DNA from: an uncultured Gammaproteobacteria bacterium
GTDB taxonomy: Bacteria; Patescibacteriota; Patescibacteriia; Magasanikbacterales; UBA922
Reading direction: 5' to 3'
Length of the DNA: 64,000 nucleotides
NCBI GenBank assembly: GCA_964345045.1
Contig: CAYFPM010000001.1
Location: 375,632-439,631 of the forward strand
Under the pieces are notes generated by a model. It was not told where the DNA came from, ran no database searches, and was given only the letters and a program-made list of their open reading frames with translations. Below are positions 3,225 to 62,668 of the stretch, one piece after another. Every line of letters begins with the position of its first letter. Position 1 is the stretch's first letter. The position numbers and the translations under genes are program-made.

Positions 3225-5237
3225 ATGACCGCCCCGCAACTAAAACCAACCCATTCTTCCGAAGAAGACAAAGAAAATTTGTGCTTGTTTGCGCAGACCG
3301 ATTTTCGCAATCAGATGCGTCGTTTTGGTATAAAAACAGACGATCGACGTCGTCATATGTATGTAGTGGGCAAAACCGGTATGGGCAAGACCACCATGAT
3401 GGAAAACATGGTACTTCATGATATTTATAATGGACATGGAGTGGGAATTGTAGATCCTCATGGAGACTTTGCCGAAAAAATAATCAATTATATTCCACCA
3501 CACAGAATCAACGATGTGGTTTATTTCAATCCGGCCGACACCAGTTTCCCCATAGGATTTAATATTTTGGAAGTAAAAAATGATGAACAAAAACACTTGG
3601 TAGCTTCTGGACTTATGGCTACTTTCAAAAAGATTTGGCCGGATGTATGGAGTTCTAGAATGGAATACATCTTGAACAACACTCTTTTGGCACTTTTGGA
3701 CTATCCTGGTTCTACCTTGCTCGGGATAAATAGATTATTGGCTGACAAAGCCTACAGAAAAAAAGTTATTAGCAAATTGAAGGATCCGGTAGTAAAAGCT
3801 TTTTGGCAAAATGAATTTGCCAGCTATAACGACAGATATGCCCAAGAAGCTGTAGCTCCGATCCAAAACAAGATTGGTCAGTTTTTGTCTGCCAGTGTGA
3901 TTAGAAATATGGTAGCTCAGGTAAAATCAACTATAAACATCCGAGAAATTATGGATGGCCAAAAGATATTTGTAATGAATCTGTCCAAAGGTAGAATTGG
4001 AGAAGACAACAGTAGACTGCTTGGTGGTATGCTTATTACCGAAATCCAATTGGCTGCTATGGAAAGAGTAGACACTCCCGAACACGAAAGAAAAGATTTC
4101 TTTTTGTATGTAGACGAATTTCAAAACTTTGCTACCCCCAGTTTTGCCAATATTTTGTCCGAGGCTCGTAAATATCGCCTTAGTTTGATTATGGCGCACC
4201 AGTATATAAAACAGCTAGACGAAATAGTGGGGGATGCTGTGTTTGGGAACGTTGGTACTATTGTAACTTTTCGGGTGGGTGGTCCAGATGCCGAAGTTTT
4301 GGTAAAAGAATTTACTCCAACTTTTATGGAAGAAGATATTGTGAATCTAGAAAAGTTTCATATATTTTTGAAATTAATGATAAACGGAGTAGCTTCTCTA
4401 CCTTTTAGCGCTATGACTATGCCGCCAATTGGCTCGCCAACCGGTAGTGCCGAAAAAGTAATAAAAGTTTCTAGAGAAAGATATGCCAAAGACAAAAGCA
4501 GTATAGAAGACAAAATCACCAGGTGGAGTGGCATGGAGCCGGTAGAATCACAAGAAGAAGAATTTGATGTGGATACTACAAAAAGACCGCCCAAGAAAAA
4601 AGAATCCTCCAAAACAATATCGCTTAGTGATTTGAAACCAAAAGAAAATAATCCTCCAAAGGATAGTTCCAAAAAAACAAGTTCACAAAAACCAAAAGAA
4701 GAACGATCCTCTGCTTCTGATCGTCCAAAAGGAGACAAAGGGGCAGGAAATTCGTCTGCCGGCTTGGGACAAGAAAATAAAAATGGCCAAGCTGTAAGTG
4801 GTGGTGAGAGCCATGATTCGGAAAAGAAAAAAAGAAAACGAAAAAGAAAGAAAAAGAGTGAAGGCCAAAATAATGCTTCTTCTACAAATAATAATGGTAG
4901 TCAACCAAAACCAGAAGACACCCAAAAATCTCTATCCGAATTGCAATCGAGTAAACAAATAGAAAAGACTAATAAACAAGAAGAAGACTCGCCAGAAAAA
5001 CAAGAAACAACCAATACAGAGTATAAAATTAAAGATAGTAAACAACAGGTAGCAGACGTTGATGAAAAAATAGAATATAAGCAAGCTGTAGTAGAGAACA
5101 AAGATAATCAAGAAGAAAAAAACACAGAACCGATGATAAGTCTGGCAGACTTGTCGGAGAAAAAAGAAGACAAACCTACAGAAAACTCTGCCCCAAAAAA
5201 ATTAGACGAAAATGATATAATTAGTTTTGATTCTTAA
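3225..5237 (+). CDS. AAA-like ATPase of the VirD4/TraG/TraD coupling-protein type (DUF87/TraM-recognition-like) with long K/E/S-rich disordered C-terminal tail
   Basis: Walker A VVGKTGMGKTT; Walker B-like FLYVDEFQNF; C-terminal ~230 aa low-complexity lysine/glutamate/serine-rich region. The ORF track starts at TTG 3198; ATG 3225 is preferred. Confidence 0.55.
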   Translation: MTAPQLKPTHSSEEDKENLCLFAQTDFRNQMRRFGIKTDDRRRHMYVVGKTGMGKTTMMENMVLHDIYNGHGVGIVDPHGDFAEKIINYIPPHRINDVVYFNPADTSFPIGFNILEVKNDEQKHLVASGLMATFKKIWPDVWSSRMEYILNNTLLALLDYPGSTLLGINRLLADKAYRKKVISKLKDPVVKAFWQNEFASYNDRYAQEAVAPIQNKIGQFLSASVIRNMVAQVKSTINIREIMDGQKIFVMNLSKGRIGEDNSRLLGGMLITEIQLAAMERVDTPEHERKDFFLYVDEFQNFATPSFANILSEARKYRLSLIMAHQYIKQLDEIVGDAVFGNVGTIVTFRVGGPDAEVLVKEFTPTFMEEDIVNLEKFHIFLKLMINGVASLPFSAMTMPPIGSPTGSAEKVIKVSRERYAKDKSSIEDKITRWSGMEPVESQEEEFDVDTTKRPPKKKESSKTISLSDLKPKENNPPKDSSKKTSSQKPKEERSSASDRPKGDKGAGNSSAGLGQENKNGQAVSGGESHDSEKKKRKRKRKKKSEGQNNASSTNNNGSQPKPEDTQKSLSELQSSKQIEKTNKQEEDSPEKQETTNTEYKIKDSKQQVADVDEKIEYKQAVVENKDNQEEKNTEPMISLADLSEKKEDKPTENSAPKKLDENDIISFDS

Positions 5238-5662: not shown

Positions 5663-5759
5663 AAGTATTTAGCTATATTAAACAGATTTGTTGGGTATAT
5701 CTTGACAAGTCTGTTTTTTTTTGATAAGTTCAAATATCGCATAGATGTGGAGGTCAAAT

Positions 5760-6260
5760 ATGCGTATCGTAGACATGTTTAGTTTTCTGTTGTTCCTTTT
5801 GGGGCTTTGTAAAAAAAGTCCGGTACCTCTGTGGTACTTGGAGATCAAGCTCAAAAGACAAAAATTCACTCCTAAGACCCCCGAATGGGCAAAGTGGACG
5901 CCCCTTGAGCCCTGCTGGCATGAGACTGGTAGAGAAAAACGGGGAGCCATAAGTTTCCGAATCAGGGGGGACTTGATTCTGAGGAACGATGGTACGGCCG
6001 TGATCTTGAGCAGAGTTTCTAGTGCTAGGACACTAGAGCTGTGTGCTCTTCACACCGGGCAAGGAGTCCCGAGTGGAGAAGAAGCCAGACTGCGTGACCT
6101 AGCCAAAGATATTTTTTCTCGAGAACTATCTGAAGTGACAATCTCACCAAATCTCACGGCAGCCGGGATCTTTCGATTTGTTCGAGAGGAAAATATGTTT
6201 TCTGCCTATGTAAATGGCATTGCTTGTGAATATCGCCAAGCACGCCAATACGGTCAGTAG
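5760..6260 (+). CDS. GC-rich hypothetical secreted/lipoprotein-like protein (foreign-looking cassette gene)
   Basis: GGAGG 6 nt upstream of ATG 5760; TTGACA-17-TAAGTT promoter at 5702-5730; N-terminal hydrophobic segment ending LLGLC; local GC about 50% vs ~33% in flanks. Confidence 0.4.
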   Translation: MRIVDMFSFLLFLLGLCKKSPVPLWYLEIKLKRQKFTPKTPEWAKWTPLEPCWHETGREKRGAISFRIRGDLILRNDGTAVILSRVSSARTLELCALHTGQGVPSGEEARLRDLAKDIFSRELSEVTISPNLTAAGIFRFVREENMFSAYVNGIACEYRQARQYGQ

Positions 6261-6369
6261 AGTTCCTTGTGTGATCTCTCCACAAAAAAATCACCCAAAA
6301 TCAAAAGAACACCATTATATGGTGTCTTTTTGTATTTGGAATGGAGTGGCTCGGATCCTACTCGAGCCG

Positions 6370-6582
6370 CTAGTGGAGGGGATCGCTGGGGTTGGGACCA
6401 GCTTGATTCTCTCCGAGATGGAGACAACGTAGCTTCCAAGTATTGAAGGCATCTTCTTGCTCCGTCATCGGAGCGGCTCTTCCAGTTCGGAAGTATCCTT
6501 TGCCCTGGAGAGCCTTTCTTATGGTAGCAGAATCGGTTCGAGGAGGTGCCTGCCTTTTTTGGGTAATGGTAGCTTGAGCCAT
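6370..6582 (-). CDS. GC-rich hypothetical small protein (70 aa), convergent with the 5760 gene
   Basis: AAGGAG 9 nt upstream of ATG (minus strand). Minus-strand TTGACA-17-TATAAG promoter lies at ~6625-6660. Confidence 0.3.
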   Translation of the reverse strand: MAQATITQKRQAPPRTDSATIRKALQGKGYFRTGRAAPMTEQEDAFNTWKLRCLHLGENQAGPNPSDPLH

Positions 6583-6709
6583 CCGTGTCTTCTCCTTCTG
6601 GAATGTCTGTGACCATCTGGTCAATTTCCTTATACCAAAAATTATATCACTTGTCAAGAGTATCGGCAAGCTTGAAAGAAAAAATTGCCTATGTTAAGGT
6701 TTAGGCATT

Positions 6710-12831: not shown

Positions 12832-13353
12832 TTGATGAAAAAAATCATGGTGAAGGCCTTCGCCATGGCGGCCTTGACCTTGGCTATATACTTCGCCTTC
12901 GCATGGTACTTCGGTACTGTGGAGTCCCTAAGTGTGCACTCCCTCGGGAGGCGTTACTTCGAGGGGGTCTCCACCTCCATCGTGGTATTCTGCGGCTTTG
13001 TGTTTATCTTCTTTCTAGACGATTTCAACACATTTGCCGCCTGGGTAATTGCTGTTTTTACTCCCTTTGGGAGCGTCTGTTCCTGGTTCCTGTTCAGAGT
13101 ATCAGACGAAATGCCCTTAGGTCCCTTAGGAGGTTTCCTCTTTCTTCCGAGTTTCTCCCTTCTCCTAGTCGGGATTTTATCCGATTACGTCGTTAGAAAG
13201 GAGAAGGATGATCAGTACATATCCTTCATGCTTTTGTCTGACAAGGGCTATGTGCTGAAAGAGGTGTCGTATAGGAAGGTGTTCCTCGTCTACCTCGTCG
13301 AGGTGGCGAGCATCTCGATTCCCATATTCCTCCACCTGAGAAGTCTTAGGTAG
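12832..13353 (+). CDS. GC-rich hypothetical 4-TM membrane protein (foreign-looking cassette gene)
   Basis: GGAGG 7 nt upstream of ATG; GC about 50%; hairpin gagtgcttttttt after the stop (~13425-13450); TTGACAAGT at 12651. Confidence 0.45.
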   Translation: MMKKIMVKAFAMAALTLAIYFAFAWYFGTVESLSVHSLGRRYFEGVSTSIVVFCGFVFIFFLDDFNTFAAWVIAVFTPFGSVCSWFLFRVSDEMPLGPLGGFLFLPSFSLLLVGILSDYVVRKEKDDQYISFMLLSDKGYVLKEVSYRKVFLVYLVEVASISIPIFLHLRSLR

Positions 13354-19164: not shown

Positions 19165-21489
19165 TTGTTTACTGTTATGAAAACAAACGAACTAAGACAA
19201 AAATTTCTAGAATTTTTCAAAGAAAGAGAGCATGAGATAGTGCCCTCTGCTTCGCTATTGCCAGAGAACGACCCAACCACTCTCTTTACAGGCTCTGGTA
19301 TGCAGCCAATGGTCCCGTACTTGCTTGGAGAGAAACATCCAAAGGGAGTGAGACTAGCAGATTCACAAAAATGTTTCCGAGCTCAAGACATTGAGGAAGT
19401 AGGCGACAATCGCCACACCACATTTTTTGAGATGCTTGGCAACTGGTCACTGGGGGACTACTTCAAAAAAGAACAAATTAGCTGGATGTTTGAATTTTTA
19501 ACAAAAGAGCTAAAGTTAGATCCAAAAAATATTTATATTACTTGTTTCAAAGGTAATGAAGCTTTGCAAATAGAAAGAGATGAAGAATCTGTAAAACTAT
19601 GGCAAGAAGAATTTAAAAAACTAGGTATAGAAGCTACTGTAGGAGAAAATCCAGAGGCAGATGGAATGCAAGATAATAAGATTTTTTACTACGATGATAA
19701 GAAAAATTGGTGGAGCCGCTCTGGAGTACCAGCCAAAATGCCAGAAGGCGAACCAGGTGGACCAGACAGTGAAATGTTTTGGGACTATGGCGTAGAATTG
19801 GGCTTGCACGAGAAGTCTGAGTGGAAAGATGAACCTTGTCATGTCAATTGTGATTGTGGCCGCTTTATGGAGATTGGCAATAATGTTTTCATGGAGTATC
19901 AAAAAGTTCAGAAAAAAATATTGTTCGTGGACGCGATGTATACTTTATTCGATGAAAATTGGCAACCTGTTGTTGAAGTTGTTGAAGCTGTAAAAAATAT
20001 ATCTACAAAATATGATCTAAAGGTATTTGTTATCACTAACGGACCAAAAGAGATTGTATCACAATCCATTAGCAATACTGATCTTAATGCAACAATCATA
20101 ACATACGAGAATAGCCCTAGTAAAAATAATCCGTCATATTTTGCTAAGGTTCTAGACGAATACAACTTAAATTCACTTGATATTTTATATATAGATCACA
20201 GCCAGGATAATCTTGCTTCTGCCAACCAGCACAACATTTCAGGGGTTCACTTTAAGGGGGTTGATTCACTTTCTATTGTTGACACCAAGTTGAGTGCCTT
20301 CCAAAAACTAGAACAACAAAACGTAGACGAAGGTAGTGGTCTAGAGCGAATGGTGGCAGCTACTATAAACAATCCTGATGTATTCATGATTGATGCTTTT
20401 GATAATGGACGAAGCGTATTAGAAGAGTTAAGTGGTAAAAAATATGGTGAAAGCGAAGAAGTAACCGAAGCTTTCCGCGTTATCTTAGATCATTTACGGG
20501 CTGCTACTTTCTTAATTTCCGACTCAGCTTATCCATCGAACAAAGACCAAGGTTACTTTACTCGCAGACTAATTCGCAGATCAGTACGCTTTGCTGCGAG
20601 CCTTGGTATAGAAGAAAACTTTTGTGGTAGAGTGGCCGAAGGCTTTATAGAGACTTACCAAGAAGCATATCCAAATCTAGGAGAAGAAAAGAAAAGCATT
20701 CTAGACAATATGAGTAAGGAAGAAGAGAAGTTCCGAAAAGCTCTAAAACGTGGAGCCAAAGAATATGATAAGAAAATAGATGAGATTAAAAAAAGTGCTA
20801 GCCAAGAAAATTATGGCGAGCTAGCCAAAATTGCTTTTGACCTATACCAAACCCATGGTTTGCCAGTAGAAGTATTTACAGATTACTTAAATAATATTGG
20901 TGTAGCGGTAGAAGAAATGAAAATGCTGGATGAGTTTGATAAAGTTGTCAAAGAACATCAAGCCGTATCTCGCGCCGGAGCCGAAAAGAAATTTCATGGT
21001 GGACTAGCAGATCATAGTGAAAAATCTGTGCGGGGTCATACGGCCACTCATTTGCTCCATGCAGCTCTCCGTGAAGTATTAGGCGAACATGTACAGCAAA
21101 AGGGGAGTAACATTACTCCAGAGAGAGTTAGATTTGATTTTTCTCATAGTGATAAGCTAACAGACGAAGAAGTTAAAAAAGTTGAAGACCTGGTAAACGC
21201 TGCTATAGAAAAGGACTACCCAGTGAGCTGGCACGAGATGACAGTAGACGAAGCTTACCAGAAAAAAGCCATTGGTTTTTTCCCAGAGCGGTATGATGAG
21301 ATTGTAAAAGTCTATACTATTGGCGATCCAGAAAAACCTATGAAAGCCGATCCAGAATCAGCAACTTTTTCACAAGAAATCTGTGGTGGACCTCATGTAG
21401 AACATACTAGCGTGGTAGGCAAATTCAAGATTGCCAAAGAAGAAGCTTTGGGGACAGGATTACGTAGAATAAAGGCATTATTAGAGTAG
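19165..21489 (+). CDS. alaS: alanine--tRNA ligase (short form lacking C-Ala domain) with ~145-aa internal insertion
   Basis: Class II core (FTGSGMQPMVPY, RHTTFFEMLGNWS), GSGLERMVAA, editing domain (HTATHLLHAAL, CGGPHVEH); extra block KKILFVDAMYTLF...VFVITNG...ILYIDHSQDN between FMEYQKVQ and GLERM. Confidence 0.85.
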   Translation: MFTVMKTNELRQKFLEFFKEREHEIVPSASLLPENDPTTLFTGSGMQPMVPYLLGEKHPKGVRLADSQKCFRAQDIEEVGDNRHTTFFEMLGNWSLGDYFKKEQISWMFEFLTKELKLDPKNIYITCFKGNEALQIERDEESVKLWQEEFKKLGIEATVGENPEADGMQDNKIFYYDDKKNWWSRSGVPAKMPEGEPGGPDSEMFWDYGVELGLHEKSEWKDEPCHVNCDCGRFMEIGNNVFMEYQKVQKKILFVDAMYTLFDENWQPVVEVVEAVKNISTKYDLKVFVITNGPKEIVSQSISNTDLNATIITYENSPSKNNPSYFAKVLDEYNLNSLDILYIDHSQDNLASANQHNISGVHFKGVDSLSIVDTKLSAFQKLEQQNVDEGSGLERMVAATINNPDVFMIDAFDNGRSVLEELSGKKYGESEEVTEAFRVILDHLRAATFLISDSAYPSNKDQGYFTRRLIRRSVRFAASLGIEENFCGRVAEGFIETYQEAYPNLGEEKKSILDNMSKEEEKFRKALKRGAKEYDKKIDEIKKSASQENYGELAKIAFDLYQTHGLPVEVFTDYLNNIGVAVEEMKMLDEFDKVVKEHQAVSRAGAEKKFHGGLADHSEKSVRGHTATHLLHAALREVLGEHVQQKGSNITPERVRFDFSHSDKLTDEEVKKVEDLVNAAIEKDYPVSWHEMTVDEAYQKKAIGFFPERYDEIVKVYTIGDPEKPMKADPESATFSQEICGGPHVEHTSVVGKFKIAKEEALGTGLRRIKALLE

Positions 21490-21512
21490 ATTTTAAACAA
21501 AAAGTTTAAAAA

Positions 21513-21617: not shown

Positions 21618-22043
21618 ATGATTGTCCATAGAAAACTTATGAAAGGCTATAATTTTTCGCAAAATGGCAACATACAATACCCAGATTACGGGAAGATTTG
21701 CCCGGCCACATTTCATATAGATCTTTCTGGCTGCCAAGCAAAATTTTTGCAGAGCAGATCTGTAGAGCATTTTTTCGATAGGGTGTGCCATCTGTTAGGG
21801 GTACAAAGGAGGGGGGATGCTCTTTTGCTGTATTTTGACGAAAGTCCGGATTTCAAAGGTTACAAAGCTGTACAAATTTTATCCAAGATATTTATCACCG
21901 GTCATTTTTGCCAAAACAAAAATTCTGTTAGCTTGGATATTTATTCGTATAGAGATTTGGATATCTATAGGATAGGAGCTTGGTCCAAAAAATATTTTGA
22001 TGCCAATAACCTAGCTATTCAGGATTTTACCAGATTGGTATAG
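21618..22043 (+). CDS. hypothetical protein
   Basis: 141-aa ORF, Cys/His-containing, no motif; weak. Confidence 0.3.
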   Translation: MIVHRKLMKGYNFSQNGNIQYPDYGKICPATFHIDLSGCQAKFLQSRSVEHFFDRVCHLLGVQRRGDALLLYFDESPDFKGYKAVQILSKIFITGHFCQNKNSVSLDIYSYRDLDIYRIGAWSKKYFDANNLAIQDFTRLV

Positions 22044-22045
22044 AT

Positions 22046-22888
22046 CTATAGTGGGCCAAATATTTTTTTAAATCTATTTTTTATTTTTTGAGCATCTTTT
22101 GGATGTTTTTTTAATACCAATTTTGCTTTTATCTTTCTTTTTACTAATTCGATAATATAATCTGGGTCAATCTCATTGTAGCTAGGAAATTTTTTATAAA
22201 TCTCGTCTATAAAATTTACAGTTTCTTGATCCAAGGTAATCGTCAAAATATAATCATCTATAACTGTAAAACTTTTGTTTCGCTCTTTTTTAAAAGATTC
22301 TCCATCTGGCAAAAGAAAGTATTTTTGTCTGGGATATTTTTCCCAGATTTTTTTACTATATCGGTCGAGTGGGGTATTCCCTCCCACAATCATATAATCA
22401 TCACTTACTAGTTTGTGAAAAGAGTTCAAAAACTGATCATTTTGTTTTTGGATAATTAGATCAAACCAAGTATGAGGACAATAGCTAGTGGCATAAGTTT
22501 CTGTAGAGTCATGTGCCATAGCCAAAAGTACCTGCGCCCAAGAACCATCCAACGTAACCATATCACTAAACTGCCAACTGATTTTTTGTTTTTCGTCTTT
22601 TGGCAAAATACTTTTTAAATAATTCAAATCAAAATAAACACTCTCTGCACGTTCGGCAAATTTGGCCAGGTTGAGTATCCAAGGTATGCGCAAAGAATAA
22701 GTTGTTTTGTTTTTTATAATAACGGCGTCTTGTTCTAATTGTTTCAAGACCTTGTATACAGATTGAATAGAAACCAAAATATCGTTTTGTCTACATTTTT
22801 GGTGAATTGCTTTGGCACTAAGGTTTGGCCTTTCTGACAGGGCATGAATTATACAGTTTTCTAGTTGTAGATTTATACCCAGTAGCAT
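22046..22888 (-). CDS. winged-helix (HTH) domain protein with uncharacterised C-terminal domain
   Basis: N-terminal LSAKAIHQKCRQNDILVSIQSVYKVLKQLEQDAVI resembles a wHTH; rest unknown. Confidence 0.4.
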   Translation of the reverse strand: MLLGINLQLENCIIHALSERPNLSAKAIHQKCRQNDILVSIQSVYKVLKQLEQDAVIIKNKTTYSLRIPWILNLAKFAERAESVYFDLNYLKSILPKDEKQKISWQFSDMVTLDGSWAQVLLAMAHDSTETYATSYCPHTWFDLIIQKQNDQFLNSFHKLVSDDYMIVGGNTPLDRYSKKIWEKYPRQKYFLLPDGESFKKERNKSFTVIDDYILTITLDQETVNFIDEIYKKFPSYNEIDPDYIIELVKRKIKAKLVLKKHPKDAQKIKNRFKKIFGPL

Positions 22889-23017
22889 ATAATAATTAAA
22901 AAATAAGTTATTTAGTTTCTAATAGCTTACAAAAAGAAATTGTAAGTTGCAACTTTTTTTAAAAAGGAGTTCCAACAAGAGTTTCTTTCGTAGATTCGTC
23001 GAAAAGTAGGGAGTGCA

Positions 23018-23569
23018 ATGAATATAAGGAGACCCCCCACAAGGGGGAAATACGATCACACCTCTCTCGAGGTAAGAGATTCAAATATTCAGGGACTGGG
23101 GCTTTTTGTAACTGCCAACATCGAGCTTGGCACAAAATTGTCACCTTTTGATGGTGTTATCTATAGAGCAGATTCTGATTATCAACTTCCCACAGAAATC
23201 AGAGGTTTGCCTATCCAAATTGGAGCTGGGCTTGTACAGATGGCCACCGGTTATGCTCTTTTTGTTGCTCATAAGTGCAACACCCCGAGTGCTATAATCC
23301 AGCTAGATGCTGAGACAGGTTTTTTTTGGGTAGTCGCTCGGATAAATTTGTCGGCACAAGCAGAAGTAACCATTGATTATGGTACGATTCAGTATCCAGA
23401 TCATTTTACGCTTTATCCGGCTTATACCAAATGTAAGTGTGGCGATGCCAACTGCAGAGGTAATAGGTTGGGATTTGAATCTATGCCAGTGCCACTTCGT
23501 CGTAGTTATCGAGACGAAGGTGCTATCCCAGATTGGCTTTGGGGGTTGCAAAAAAATGACGAGACTTAA
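23018..23569 (+). CDS. SET-domain protein (putative protein-lysine methyltransferase)
   Basis: GLGLFVTANIELGTKL (GxG SAM pocket), AHKCNTPSA (NHSCxPN-like), EVTIDYG (ELxxDYG-like), post-SET CKCGDANCRG; local GC about 45%; AGGGAG SD. Confidence 0.6.
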   Translation: MNIRRPPTRGKYDHTSLEVRDSNIQGLGLFVTANIELGTKLSPFDGVIYRADSDYQLPTEIRGLPIQIGAGLVQMATGYALFVAHKCNTPSAIIQLDAETGFFWVVARINLSAQAEVTIDYGTIQYPDHFTLYPAYTKCKCGDANCRGNRLGFESMPVPLRRSYRDEGAIPDWLWGLQKNDET

Positions 23570-23668
23570 TGTTCTTTTTGCAAAGGTTTTTGGGTCAGAG
23601 GCAGACTGACCCCCAGAATTCATTAACAAATTGTTTAACAGATTAAAAAGTGTTATACTTTTTTTATT

Positions 23669-24109
23669 ATGGTAAAAAAGACAGTGTTATATTTTTGGTC
23701 TTTGCGTCGAGAATTTGCAAAGTACTTCATTATCGGCTTCAGTGGCCTTTTTTTGGATTTGGGGACATTGTATATCTTAACAGATTTGTTTGGTATTTTG
23801 GCTTATATCTCTGTTATTTTGAATCAAGCCATCGTACTAACTTATAATTTTACTCTAAACAAATATTGGGCATTTCGAAACAAAGAAGTCCCTCACAAAC
23901 AAATGGTAAGGTATGGCATACTAGCCACCTGGAATTATATTTTTTCGGTAGTGGCCATGTATATTTTCAATAGTCAACTTGGTTACGAACACAAACTGGT
24001 TAGAATTGGTAGTATTGCGGTTATGGTAAGTTGGAATTTTTTCCTATACAAGTATTGGGTTTACAAGGAAAAAGAAGAACCCGTAATGAATCCTTTGTCA
24101 GAATATTAG
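23669..24109 (+). CDS. GtrA-family membrane protein (polysaccharide synthesis-associated)
   Basis: 146 aa, 4 TM helices, YNFTLNKYWAF and WNFFLYKYWVY GtrA-type motifs. Confidence 0.65.
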   Translation: MVKKTVLYFWSLRREFAKYFIIGFSGLFLDLGTLYILTDLFGILAYISVILNQAIVLTYNFTLNKYWAFRNKEVPHKQMVRYGILATWNYIFSVVAMYIFNSQLGYEHKLVRIGSIAVMVSWNFFLYKYWVYKEKEEPVMNPLSEY

Positions 24110-62335: not shown

Positions 62336-62668
62336 GTGCAAAATCTGGAAACCTCTAGAAAAGATCTGGAGAGTACCTACAAGGCCTACTATAGGGCCCT
62401 CCGGGGGAGAGACCAAAAAGAATCCCTCACGCCGGAGAGATTCATGCAGATCATGGGAGGGGGGCCAAACTCGGGTCAGGAGCTTCGCCTCAAAGGAGGA
62501 GATGATCCCAAGTTGGTCCAGGCCGTAGTAAAGGCCGTTCAGGTCTATACTTCTGCCGTCCAGAGTCACAATGCCTCAGTGGGGGATAGGTACGTCGTGA
62601 ACCTCAATGACCCCGTCTCGCGAGGCCTGGCCGATGACGCACCTGGCCGGTACAGGTACCGACGGTAG
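62336..62668 (+). CDS. GC-rich hypothetical protein (110 aa) on an inserted cassette
   Basis: GTG start with AGGAAGGAG SD; TTGACA-17-TATCTT promoter at ~62269; 10-bp-stem hairpin cccagagtgc...gcactctggg at 62684-62719; GC over 55%. Confidence 0.45.
   Translation: MQNLETSRKDLESTYKAYYRALRGRDQKESLTPERFMQIMGGGPNSGQELRLKGGDDPKLVQAVVKAVQVYTSAVQSHNASVGDRYVVNLNDPVSRGLADDAPGRYRYRR

Follow-up and report, generated by a model that had tools for sequence, protein, structure and literature searches.

A small SET-domain protein with a degenerate catalytic motif, encoded divergently from a winged-helix gene in a Magasanikbacteria-like genome

Introduction

Most discussion of bacterial SET-domain proteins concerns histone-mimicking effectors of pathogens; small environmental SETs are far more numerous, and their roles are largely obscure. 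That environmental bacteria and archaea carry SET proteins is already known (PMC3980110), and our literature search found no paper that substantively links SET domains with bacteria of the candidate phyla radiation (CPR). Here we describe a SET gene (23018..23569, + strand) in a 64,000-nucleotide stretch of contig CAYFPM010000001.1 (positions 375,632 to 439,631, forward strand), the whole of which is called the window below. Three things are new at this locus: the SET belongs to a CPR-specific subclade, its catalytic motif is degenerate, and SET recurrently pairs with an undescribed winged-helix family and a palindrome. Together, SET gene, partner and palindrome offer a concrete, testable handle on small prokaryotic SETs. 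If the partner proves to be the substrate or the regulator, the locus would provide a rare case of endogenous regulation by lysine methylation in minimal-genome bacteria.

Several described systems invite comparison. Yeast Set1 is the best structural match of the window protein. Unlike the SET1/MLL (KMT2) enzymes, however, the window SET lacks N-SET, WIN and further flanking regions as well as WRAD partners, and it resides in a bacterial context without histones; furthermore, it carries an extra helical C-terminal extension, has Ala in place of Asn in the NHSC motif, and has a loop between the DY and CxC motifs that is longer by 5-6 residues. BurB, a 172-aa SET enzyme of Burkholderia thailandensis (PDB 9l4t/9l4v), is a methionine S-methyltransferase that converts Met to S-methylmethionine (PMC12542666). 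The two proteins have CxCxxxxCR and a 'G..ELP' tail in common, and BurB is the top PDB match of the tail (E 5.6e-5); however, they are only about 21% identical, and the BurB gene belongs to a malleicyprol/dimethylsulfoniopropionate (DMSP) secondary-metabolite cluster, whereas the window SET lies beside a winged helix-turn-helix (wHTH) regulator in a CPR genome. Go1-SET of Methanosarcina mazei methylates the endogenous chromatin protein MC1-alpha and, like the window SET, is a stand-alone small SET of a prokaryote without histones H3/H4 (PMC3980110); an endogenous target of this kind is what we favour for the window SET. A keyword look-up in that paper returned no mention of a conserved wHTH pairing for Go1-SET. 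The SET nucleomodulins of Chlamydia (NUE), Legionella (RomA/LegAS4) and Bacillus anthracis (BaSET) are secretion substrates that act on eukaryotic histones and often have additional domains, such as the ankyrin domain of RomA/LegAS4; in the window SET neither a signal nor an additional domain is present, and nothing points to a eukaryotic host. Finally, FUR/TrmB transcription factors share an N-terminal winged helix with the partner, and a palindrome at the gene's own start is typical of autoregulated dimeric wHTH factors, but the partner lacks the Fur dimerisation and metal-binding domains.

Identity of the SET protein

The gene begins with ATG and encodes a protein of 183 aa (pI 5.9) that comprises a SET domain, a post-SET segment and a C-terminal helical extension. 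Coordinates and length agree exactly with the initial annotation of this DNA, which had called the product a SET-domain protein with a post-SET Cys cluster. The Pfam check proposed there formally failed: as a single sequence the protein scored 17.1 bits against PF00856, below the gathering threshold of 22.4 (E 0.0075), in a match spanning the whole model (1-105 of 105). The precomputed Pfam field of the protein is empty, NCBIfam has no family for it or for its ortholog in locus L012, a word-indexed search of 5.8 billion proteins matched it to itself alone (a singleton cluster on contigs of up to 621 kb), a scan of GTDB species genomes, in which the window genome evidently does not serve as a species representative, found none, and single-sequence phmmer against the PDB gave weak matches to MLL/KMT2 (best E 0.013).

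The SET assignment is carried instead by profile, transitive and structural evidence. A phmmer search of 1.84 billion representatives returned 254 matches at E<=1e-3 (best non-self 3.6e-28), two of them about 40% identical to the window protein (E 1e-27 to 1e-28). The remainder are for the most part stand-alone and about 150-200 aa long, a minority being longer or multi-domain, and the window protein can be aligned with most matches through residue ~174; its relatives are widespread small SETs from CPR, DPANN and free-living bacteria. In an alignment of 60 family sequences, 59 relatives match PF00856 (best 3.8e-17), and a PDB search with the family profile reaches MLL1 SET at E 8.7e-30. An AlphaFold (AF2) model built from the family alignment, which was used in place of an unusable single-sequence model (predicted local distance difference test, pLDDT, 30), is confident throughout (pLDDT 93; predicted template-modelling score, pTM, 0.89). 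The predicted model has the SET beta-fold, and Foldseek matches it to MLL1 at 3e-9.

The motifs that define the family are present far beyond chance, as judged from the 254 matches and the invariant alignment columns. H85, C87, D120, C139, C141 and C146 are invariant in the 60-sequence alignment, and the window protein keeps them all. Motif I (G26-L-G28; 23093..23101, +), which lines the S-adenosylmethionine (AdoMet) pocket, has both glycines at least 90% conserved in the alignment and in 259 (G26) and 256 (G28) of 303 family domains counted separately. Motif IV (E116-VTI-D120-Y121-G; 23363..23383, +) retains the conserved tyrosine: D120 is invariant and Y121 nearly so in the alignment, and 288 of the 303 domains have the Tyr. 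The post-SET sequence C139-K-C141-GDAN-C146 (23432..23455, +) aligns to the MLL post-SET and is predicted, with C87, to form a Zn(Cys)4 site; all four cysteines are invariant in the family alignment and also in an alignment of the clade. We conclude that the window protein has the SET fold and carries a post-SET cluster of four cysteines. The GxG, ELxxDYG-like and CxCxxxxC motifs of the initial annotation were therefore borne out; its NHSC-like motif in fact reads AHKC, with the Asn missing.

Two further features of the protein are notable. The linker between DY and CxC (23384..23431, +), which holds F-T-L-Y-P, is 17 residues long, compared with 16-17 in the window clade and 11-14 elsewhere in most of the family. 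The lengthened linker marks a subclade made up of the window protein and its nearest relatives in a rough neighbour-joining tree without bootstrap. Beyond the post-SET cysteines, a C-terminal extension beginning at R147 (23456..23566, +) carries 'LGFESMPxxxRRxY' and two predicted helices (residues 158-166 and 172-182). The extension (residues 148-183, 'LGxESLP...R..Y') is conserved across the prokaryotic small-SET family and BurB; eukaryotic SETs lack it, and their PDB profile matches stop at about profile position 132-137.

The products of genes 3 kb downstream of SET place the window: RpoA and S4 are 69% and 72% identical, respectively, to those of a Candidatus Magasanikbacteria metagenome-assembled genome (Patescibacteria/Parcubacteria). 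The best explanation is that the SET gene lies on the chromosome of a Magasanikbacteria-like CPR bacterium, and the suggestion that the host might be an episymbiont is a reasonable one on these identities. CPR bacteria are often episymbionts.

Pairing with a winged-helix gene

Across a shared divergent spacer of 129 nt (22889..23017), the SET gene faces a gene on the minus strand (22046..22888) for a 280-aa protein, the partner, with an N-terminal FUR/TrmB-like winged helix at about residues 8-65. Some 55 N-terminal residues align weakly with the DNA-binding domain of Fur (2xig, E 7e-4); the C-terminal ~215 aa have no detectable relatives. Among the 5.8 billion proteins the partner family forms 21 clusters, all of about 280 aa and without a Pfam domain; weak matches to Pfam FUR (E<0.1) occur in 14 of the 21 members, and 5 members match TrmB. 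Members of checkable origin come from CPR-like genomes, one of them annotated as Magasanikbacteria.

All retrievable partner loci were scanned uniformly with SET and partner hidden Markov models, giving 19 distinct loci, 18 with assessable flanks. SET adjoins the partner in seven of these 18 (the window, L006, L012, L014, L018, L019 and L025), and the two genes are divergent in every one, with a single gene inserted between them in L019. In L006, an unrelated metagenomic contig, SET is preceded by a divergent 305-aa gene whose product is 35% identical to the window partner over its full length (E 4e-69). Several related genomes have their SET ortholog in this same slot, flanked by alaS on one side and the infA/rpsM ribosomal cluster on the other. 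The pair of L018 lies outside this synteny, among GNAT-like, glycosyltransferase and lipoprotein genes, and is still divergent; its SET falls outside the window SET subclade in the rough tree. Furthermore, pairwise identities of SET and of partner correlate (r = 0.80) over the six loci in which both genes are complete. The syntenic orthologs argue against a recent isolated import of SET into the window genome. On these comparisons, the window SET is one member of a lineage-specific gene pair that is frequently lost, and no isolated import.

A separate arrangement was found in locus L005 (L005:1702..3528), where a TrmB-family winged-helix gene is followed by two tandem small SETs of 164 and 176 aa, beside a HicAB toxin-antitoxin pair. 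We considered the neighbours of the L005 SETs (TrmB and a 318-aa protein) as partner homologs and rejected them, as they are not homologous to the window partner; an hhalign comparison of the partner with the TrmB neighbour of other SET genes was not significant. By sequence comparison, L005 is a second, non-homologous case of a wHTH regulator beside SET genes.

A palindrome at the start of the partner gene

In 155 kb of non-redundant loci, the 17-bp palindrome TTAAAC-N5-GTTTAA, typically TTAAACAAATTGTTTAA, occurs at 7 sites against 0.065 expected. It lies 1-14 nt 5′ of the partner ATG in L008, L012, L014 and L018 and at the equivalent position in L022, L024, L027, L028 and L029, and L017 has it at the partner start with one arm mismatch. 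A site ending so close to the ATG could coincide in part with the -10 box of a leaderless transcript. This placement resembles that of an autoregulated dimeric winged-helix factor, which makes the palindrome a candidate operator of the partner. L006 has TAAACAATTCGTTTA downstream of its SET, and L018 has a second copy (3305..3321) between two GNAT-like genes.

The window departs from this usual arrangement. It contains an arms-intact copy, TTAAAC-AAAAA-GTTTAA (21493..21509), between the alaS stop codon and a gene for an AdoMet decarboxylase (AdoMet_dc)-like protein. A degenerate copy, T-TAACAAATTGTTTAA (23623..23638), in which one base of the left arm is deleted, lies between SET and gtrA and abuts a promoter-like site (23643..23670); we regard it as tentative. 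The divergent spacer, a putative functional element, holds a different local palindrome, CTTACAA-N7-TTGTAAG (22926..22946), followed with a one-base overlap by GTTGCAAC (22946..22953). When up to 3 mismatches are allowed, the canonical palindrome is not enriched in the window alone (4 matches, 2.8 expected); the arms-intact form across loci is the only significant one.

The putative recognition helix of the window partner reads QSVYKVLKQLE, compared with a consensus of QGIYRVLRKLQ, the changes within residues 40-52 being G43S, R46K, R49K and K50Q. This deviation coincides with the absence of the canonical palindrome 5′ of the partner and with the degenerate SET motif III described below; in the window genome, SET and partner alike appear to be derived.

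A proposed function and its alternatives

The reading we favour, in which our confidence is evenly poised, is that the SET protein is a cytoplasmic AdoMet-dependent methyltransferase with an endogenous target, likeliest a lysine residue of a protein that binds DNA or is associated with translation, and that the partner is its regulator and/or its substrate. The partner would be a dimeric transcription factor acting on TTAAAC-N5-GTTTAA, usually placed at the partner's own start. SET would be an accessory gene in this regulator's locus, and its product would methylate an endogenous substrate, most likely at lysine, for which the partner is the obvious candidate. An endogenous DNA-binding target has a precedent in Go1-SET and MC1-alpha (PMC3980110).

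Several observations weigh against this reading. Eleven of the 18 assessable loci have the partner but no SET, and so the two are not obligately coupled; most SET-positive loci share the alaS...infA synteny and hence are not independent observations; and the canonical palindrome is absent from the SET-partner spacer of the window (22889..23017). BurB, the sole characterised enzyme of this architecture, methylates free methionine and not protein (PMC12542666). In yeast Set1, an engineered change at the NHSC Asn (N1016A) is a null allele (PMC3585878), and in the window ortholog only, Ser86, Asn91 and the motif spacing are altered in addition to Asn84. The data directly show SET homology and fold, most of the catalytic and Zn residues in place, a conserved gene pairing, an enriched palindrome and no secretion features; the nature of the substrate, catalytic competence despite the Asn84-to-Ala change and the action of the partner at the palindrome are what we infer.

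An unlikely but serious alternative is that the protein methylates a small molecule, as BurB does, perhaps acting with the neighbouring AdoMet_dc-like pyruvoyl decarboxylase on sulfonium or aminopropyl compounds. In architecture the window protein is of the BurB type, namely a SET of about 150-200 aa with CxCxxxxCR and a 'G-x-[FY]-x-x-LP...R-x-x-Y' tail. Its identity to BurB is nevertheless no higher than to lysine methyltransferases, the loop that binds substrate in BurB has 12 residues there and 17 here, the adenine-contacting His138 of BurB (C-H-C) is replaced by Lys between the cysteines, and no other DMSP or bur pathway genes lie nearby. These differences speak against BurB-type function. 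However, Val130 and Met132 of BurB, in the loop equivalent to the DY-to-CxC linker, bind Met via main-chain atoms (PMC12542666), which keeps the sequence indecisive on this point. The decarboxylase-like gene (21639..22043, +; PF02675, E 6.5e-8) is convergent with the partner, and its product lacks the canonical E-S processing site context. It adjoins SET in the window only; AdoMet_dc genes flank the partner in L026 and L028 as well, but are just 15-19% identical to the window copy. The window gene is possibly part of one AdoMet-related neighbourhood with SET, a weak association.

It is rather unlikely, on present evidence, that the window SET is catalytically impaired or non-catalytic, serving as a binding or scaffolding protein or being on its way to loss; yet motif III (23267..23290, +) gives this alternative substance. 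In place of NHSCxPN the window protein has AHKCNTPS (A84-H85-K86-C87), in which Asn84 has become Ala, Ser86 Lys and Asn91 Ser, with a unique 1-aa insertion and with His85 and Cys87 kept; the AdoMet-contacting Asn of N-H-x-C is thus missing, and the substitution equals that of the Set1 null allele. Across the 303 family domains, position 84 is Asn in 265 and Ala in 14, position 86 is Ser in 278 and position 91 is Asn in 266, and NHSC-PN is retained by all six aligned clade members (L012, L014, L004, L006, L019 and L018), five of them linked to a partner. The frequent loss of SET from partner loci points the same way. Against impairment, the reading frame is intact and preceded by a strong Shine-Dalgarno (SD) motif, and GxG, His85, Tyr121, the four Zn cysteines and the whole C-terminal extension are kept; Ala84 also recurs naturally in the 14 family domains, P0003 among them, and the AF2 model is confident throughout. 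Because motif III is degenerate and Set1 N1016A is null, the catalytic competence of the window SET is uncertain despite these intact features.

The proposed link between SET and partner would fall away if the pairing were synteny only, with SET laterally inserted into a permissive slot beside a functionally unrelated housekeeping regulator, which we consider distinctly unlikely. Of the six SET-positive loci with sufficient flank, five share the alaS...infA synteny (L006 and L025 are too short to judge), and the position of SET relative to the palindrome differs between lineages. The window SET gene has a GC content of 44.0%, compared with 36.6% for the window, a value within the top 5% of 552-nt windows and the fifth highest among 68 long window ORFs (z +1.4). 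The excess resides in codon positions 1 and 2 (GC2 z +1.8); GC3 is 35.9%, the mean over the 68 ORFs being 31.4% (z +0.5), and because GC3 is ordinary, the codon usage is not clearly foreign. The description of the gene as compositionally atypical in the initial annotation therefore stands for total GC and for the SD motif and does not stand for GC3. That motif, AGGGAG (23008..23013, +), was read from the sequence 4 nt 5′ of the SET ATG and is, as had been claimed, unlike those of the neighbours: it is the sole strong SD-like motif among the 24 genes called in the surrounding 20 kb, with ribosomal-protein genes counted. Similarly, the SET orthologs of L012, L006, L004 and L018 have G-rich or SD-like leaders within SD-poor loci. 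SET is GC-richer than its partner in five of six loci, most strikingly in L012 (L012:4230..4769), where SET is strongly atypical for its locus (GC 57.8% vs 39.5%, GC3 62%). Higher GC than the partner and G-rich or SD-like leaders of its own are signs of lateral movement of SET. Against mere synteny stand the L018 pair outside the shared gene order, the covariation of identities, the invariably divergent orientation, and the occurrence of the partner beside other methyltransferases in loci without SET.

Those other methyltransferases bear on a more specific version of the favoured endogenous-target reading, in which SET and partner form a self-contained methylation switch: SET would methylate the regulator, or the C-terminal domain of the regulator would sense an AdoMet-derived signal, and operator binding would then be altered. 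Such a circuit would pair a bacterial methylation writer with a methylated transcription factor. We consider this version improbable as it stands. Under it, the SET writer would be replaced in some lineages by unrelated class-I protein methyltransferases beside the regulator. In L026, L028 and L029 the divergent slot next to the partner holds an operon of Cupin_2, AdoMet_dc and a PrmC/HemK-like protein methyltransferase in place of SET, and L010 and L007 have a class-I methyltransferase convergent with the partner. We rejected the idea that these class-I enzymes form one family, as those of L010 and L028 are unrelated to each other; the L028 enzyme, being PrmC/HemK-like, may be housekeeping. 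Because the enzymes are non-homologous and methyltransferases are common, the neighbourhood of AdoMet-dependent enzymes around the partner is only suggestive.

The initial annotation had raised the possibility of a host-directed effector, besides action on the bacterium's own nucleoid proteins. That an episymbiont exports this SET to methylate host proteins is very unlikely: bacterial SET effectors do exist, e.g. Chlamydia NUE and Legionella RomA/LegAS4 (PMC2904774; PMC3980110), but they act on eukaryotic histones and nothing here points to a eukaryotic host, the window SET has no hydrophobic N-terminal signal (maximum hydropathy of the first 30 aa, 0.52), no transmembrane segment and no ankyrin, other targeting or extra Pfam domain, small SETs related to it are widespread among CPR, DPANN and free-living bacteria, and it is tightly linked to a cytoplasmic-type wHTH regulator in a neighbourhood without secretion-system genes. 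The episymbiotic habit of many CPR bacteria, the slightly atypical GC and the gene's own SD motif count in favour of export. A putative endogenous DNA-binding or nucleoid target fits this context better. Annotation of such genes as 'histone methyltransferase-like effectors' is unsafe, because BurB methylates a metabolite and the window ortholog has lost the catalytic Asn.

Neighbouring genes and additional observations

The order of genes around SET is alaS, the AdoMet_dc-like gene, the 280-aa partner gene (minus strand), SET, gtrA, NUDIX, infA, rpsM, rpsK, rpsD and rpoA. PADLOC gave no defence-model match for SET, the partner or the AdoMet_dc-like protein, and neither Rfam (gathering threshold) nor a tRNA scan returned anything over the whole window. 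A hairpin after SET (23592..23612) was considered as a terminator and rejected, since it has no T-tract and the region folds no better than shuffled sequences (z -0.29).

The window genome is nearly devoid of SD motifs, and its 5′ regions are AT-rich even at ribosomal-protein genes. SET is the only strong-SD gene both among the 24 genes called here and among 14 in L012. This suggests that SD-independent or leaderless initiation is the norm in the window genome, with SET genes bringing their own leader. The L014 SET, which is 62% identical to the GC-rich L012 SET, is AT-rich (GC3 26%); this contrast suggests that SET was recently replaced by lateral transfer at this site, or that the two copies have ameliorated very differently there.

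Three stretches of the window (5745..6616, 12832..13353 and 62336..62668) are GC-richer than SET (GC 0.48-0.57; GC3 up to 0.67). No Pfam family matches their ORFs, and the Rfam and tRNA scans were empty there as well; the stretches may represent foreign DNA or RNAs not yet annotated. Finally, in the product of alaS (19177..21489, 770 aa) the catalytic domain is interrupted by a HAD-like hydrolase domain of about 120 aa (PF00702, 28.3 bits, above the gathering threshold of 26.4; residues 251-351). The AlaRS proteins of related loci are 602-644 aa long and lack the HAD insert, and L008 has a separate HAD gene nearby.

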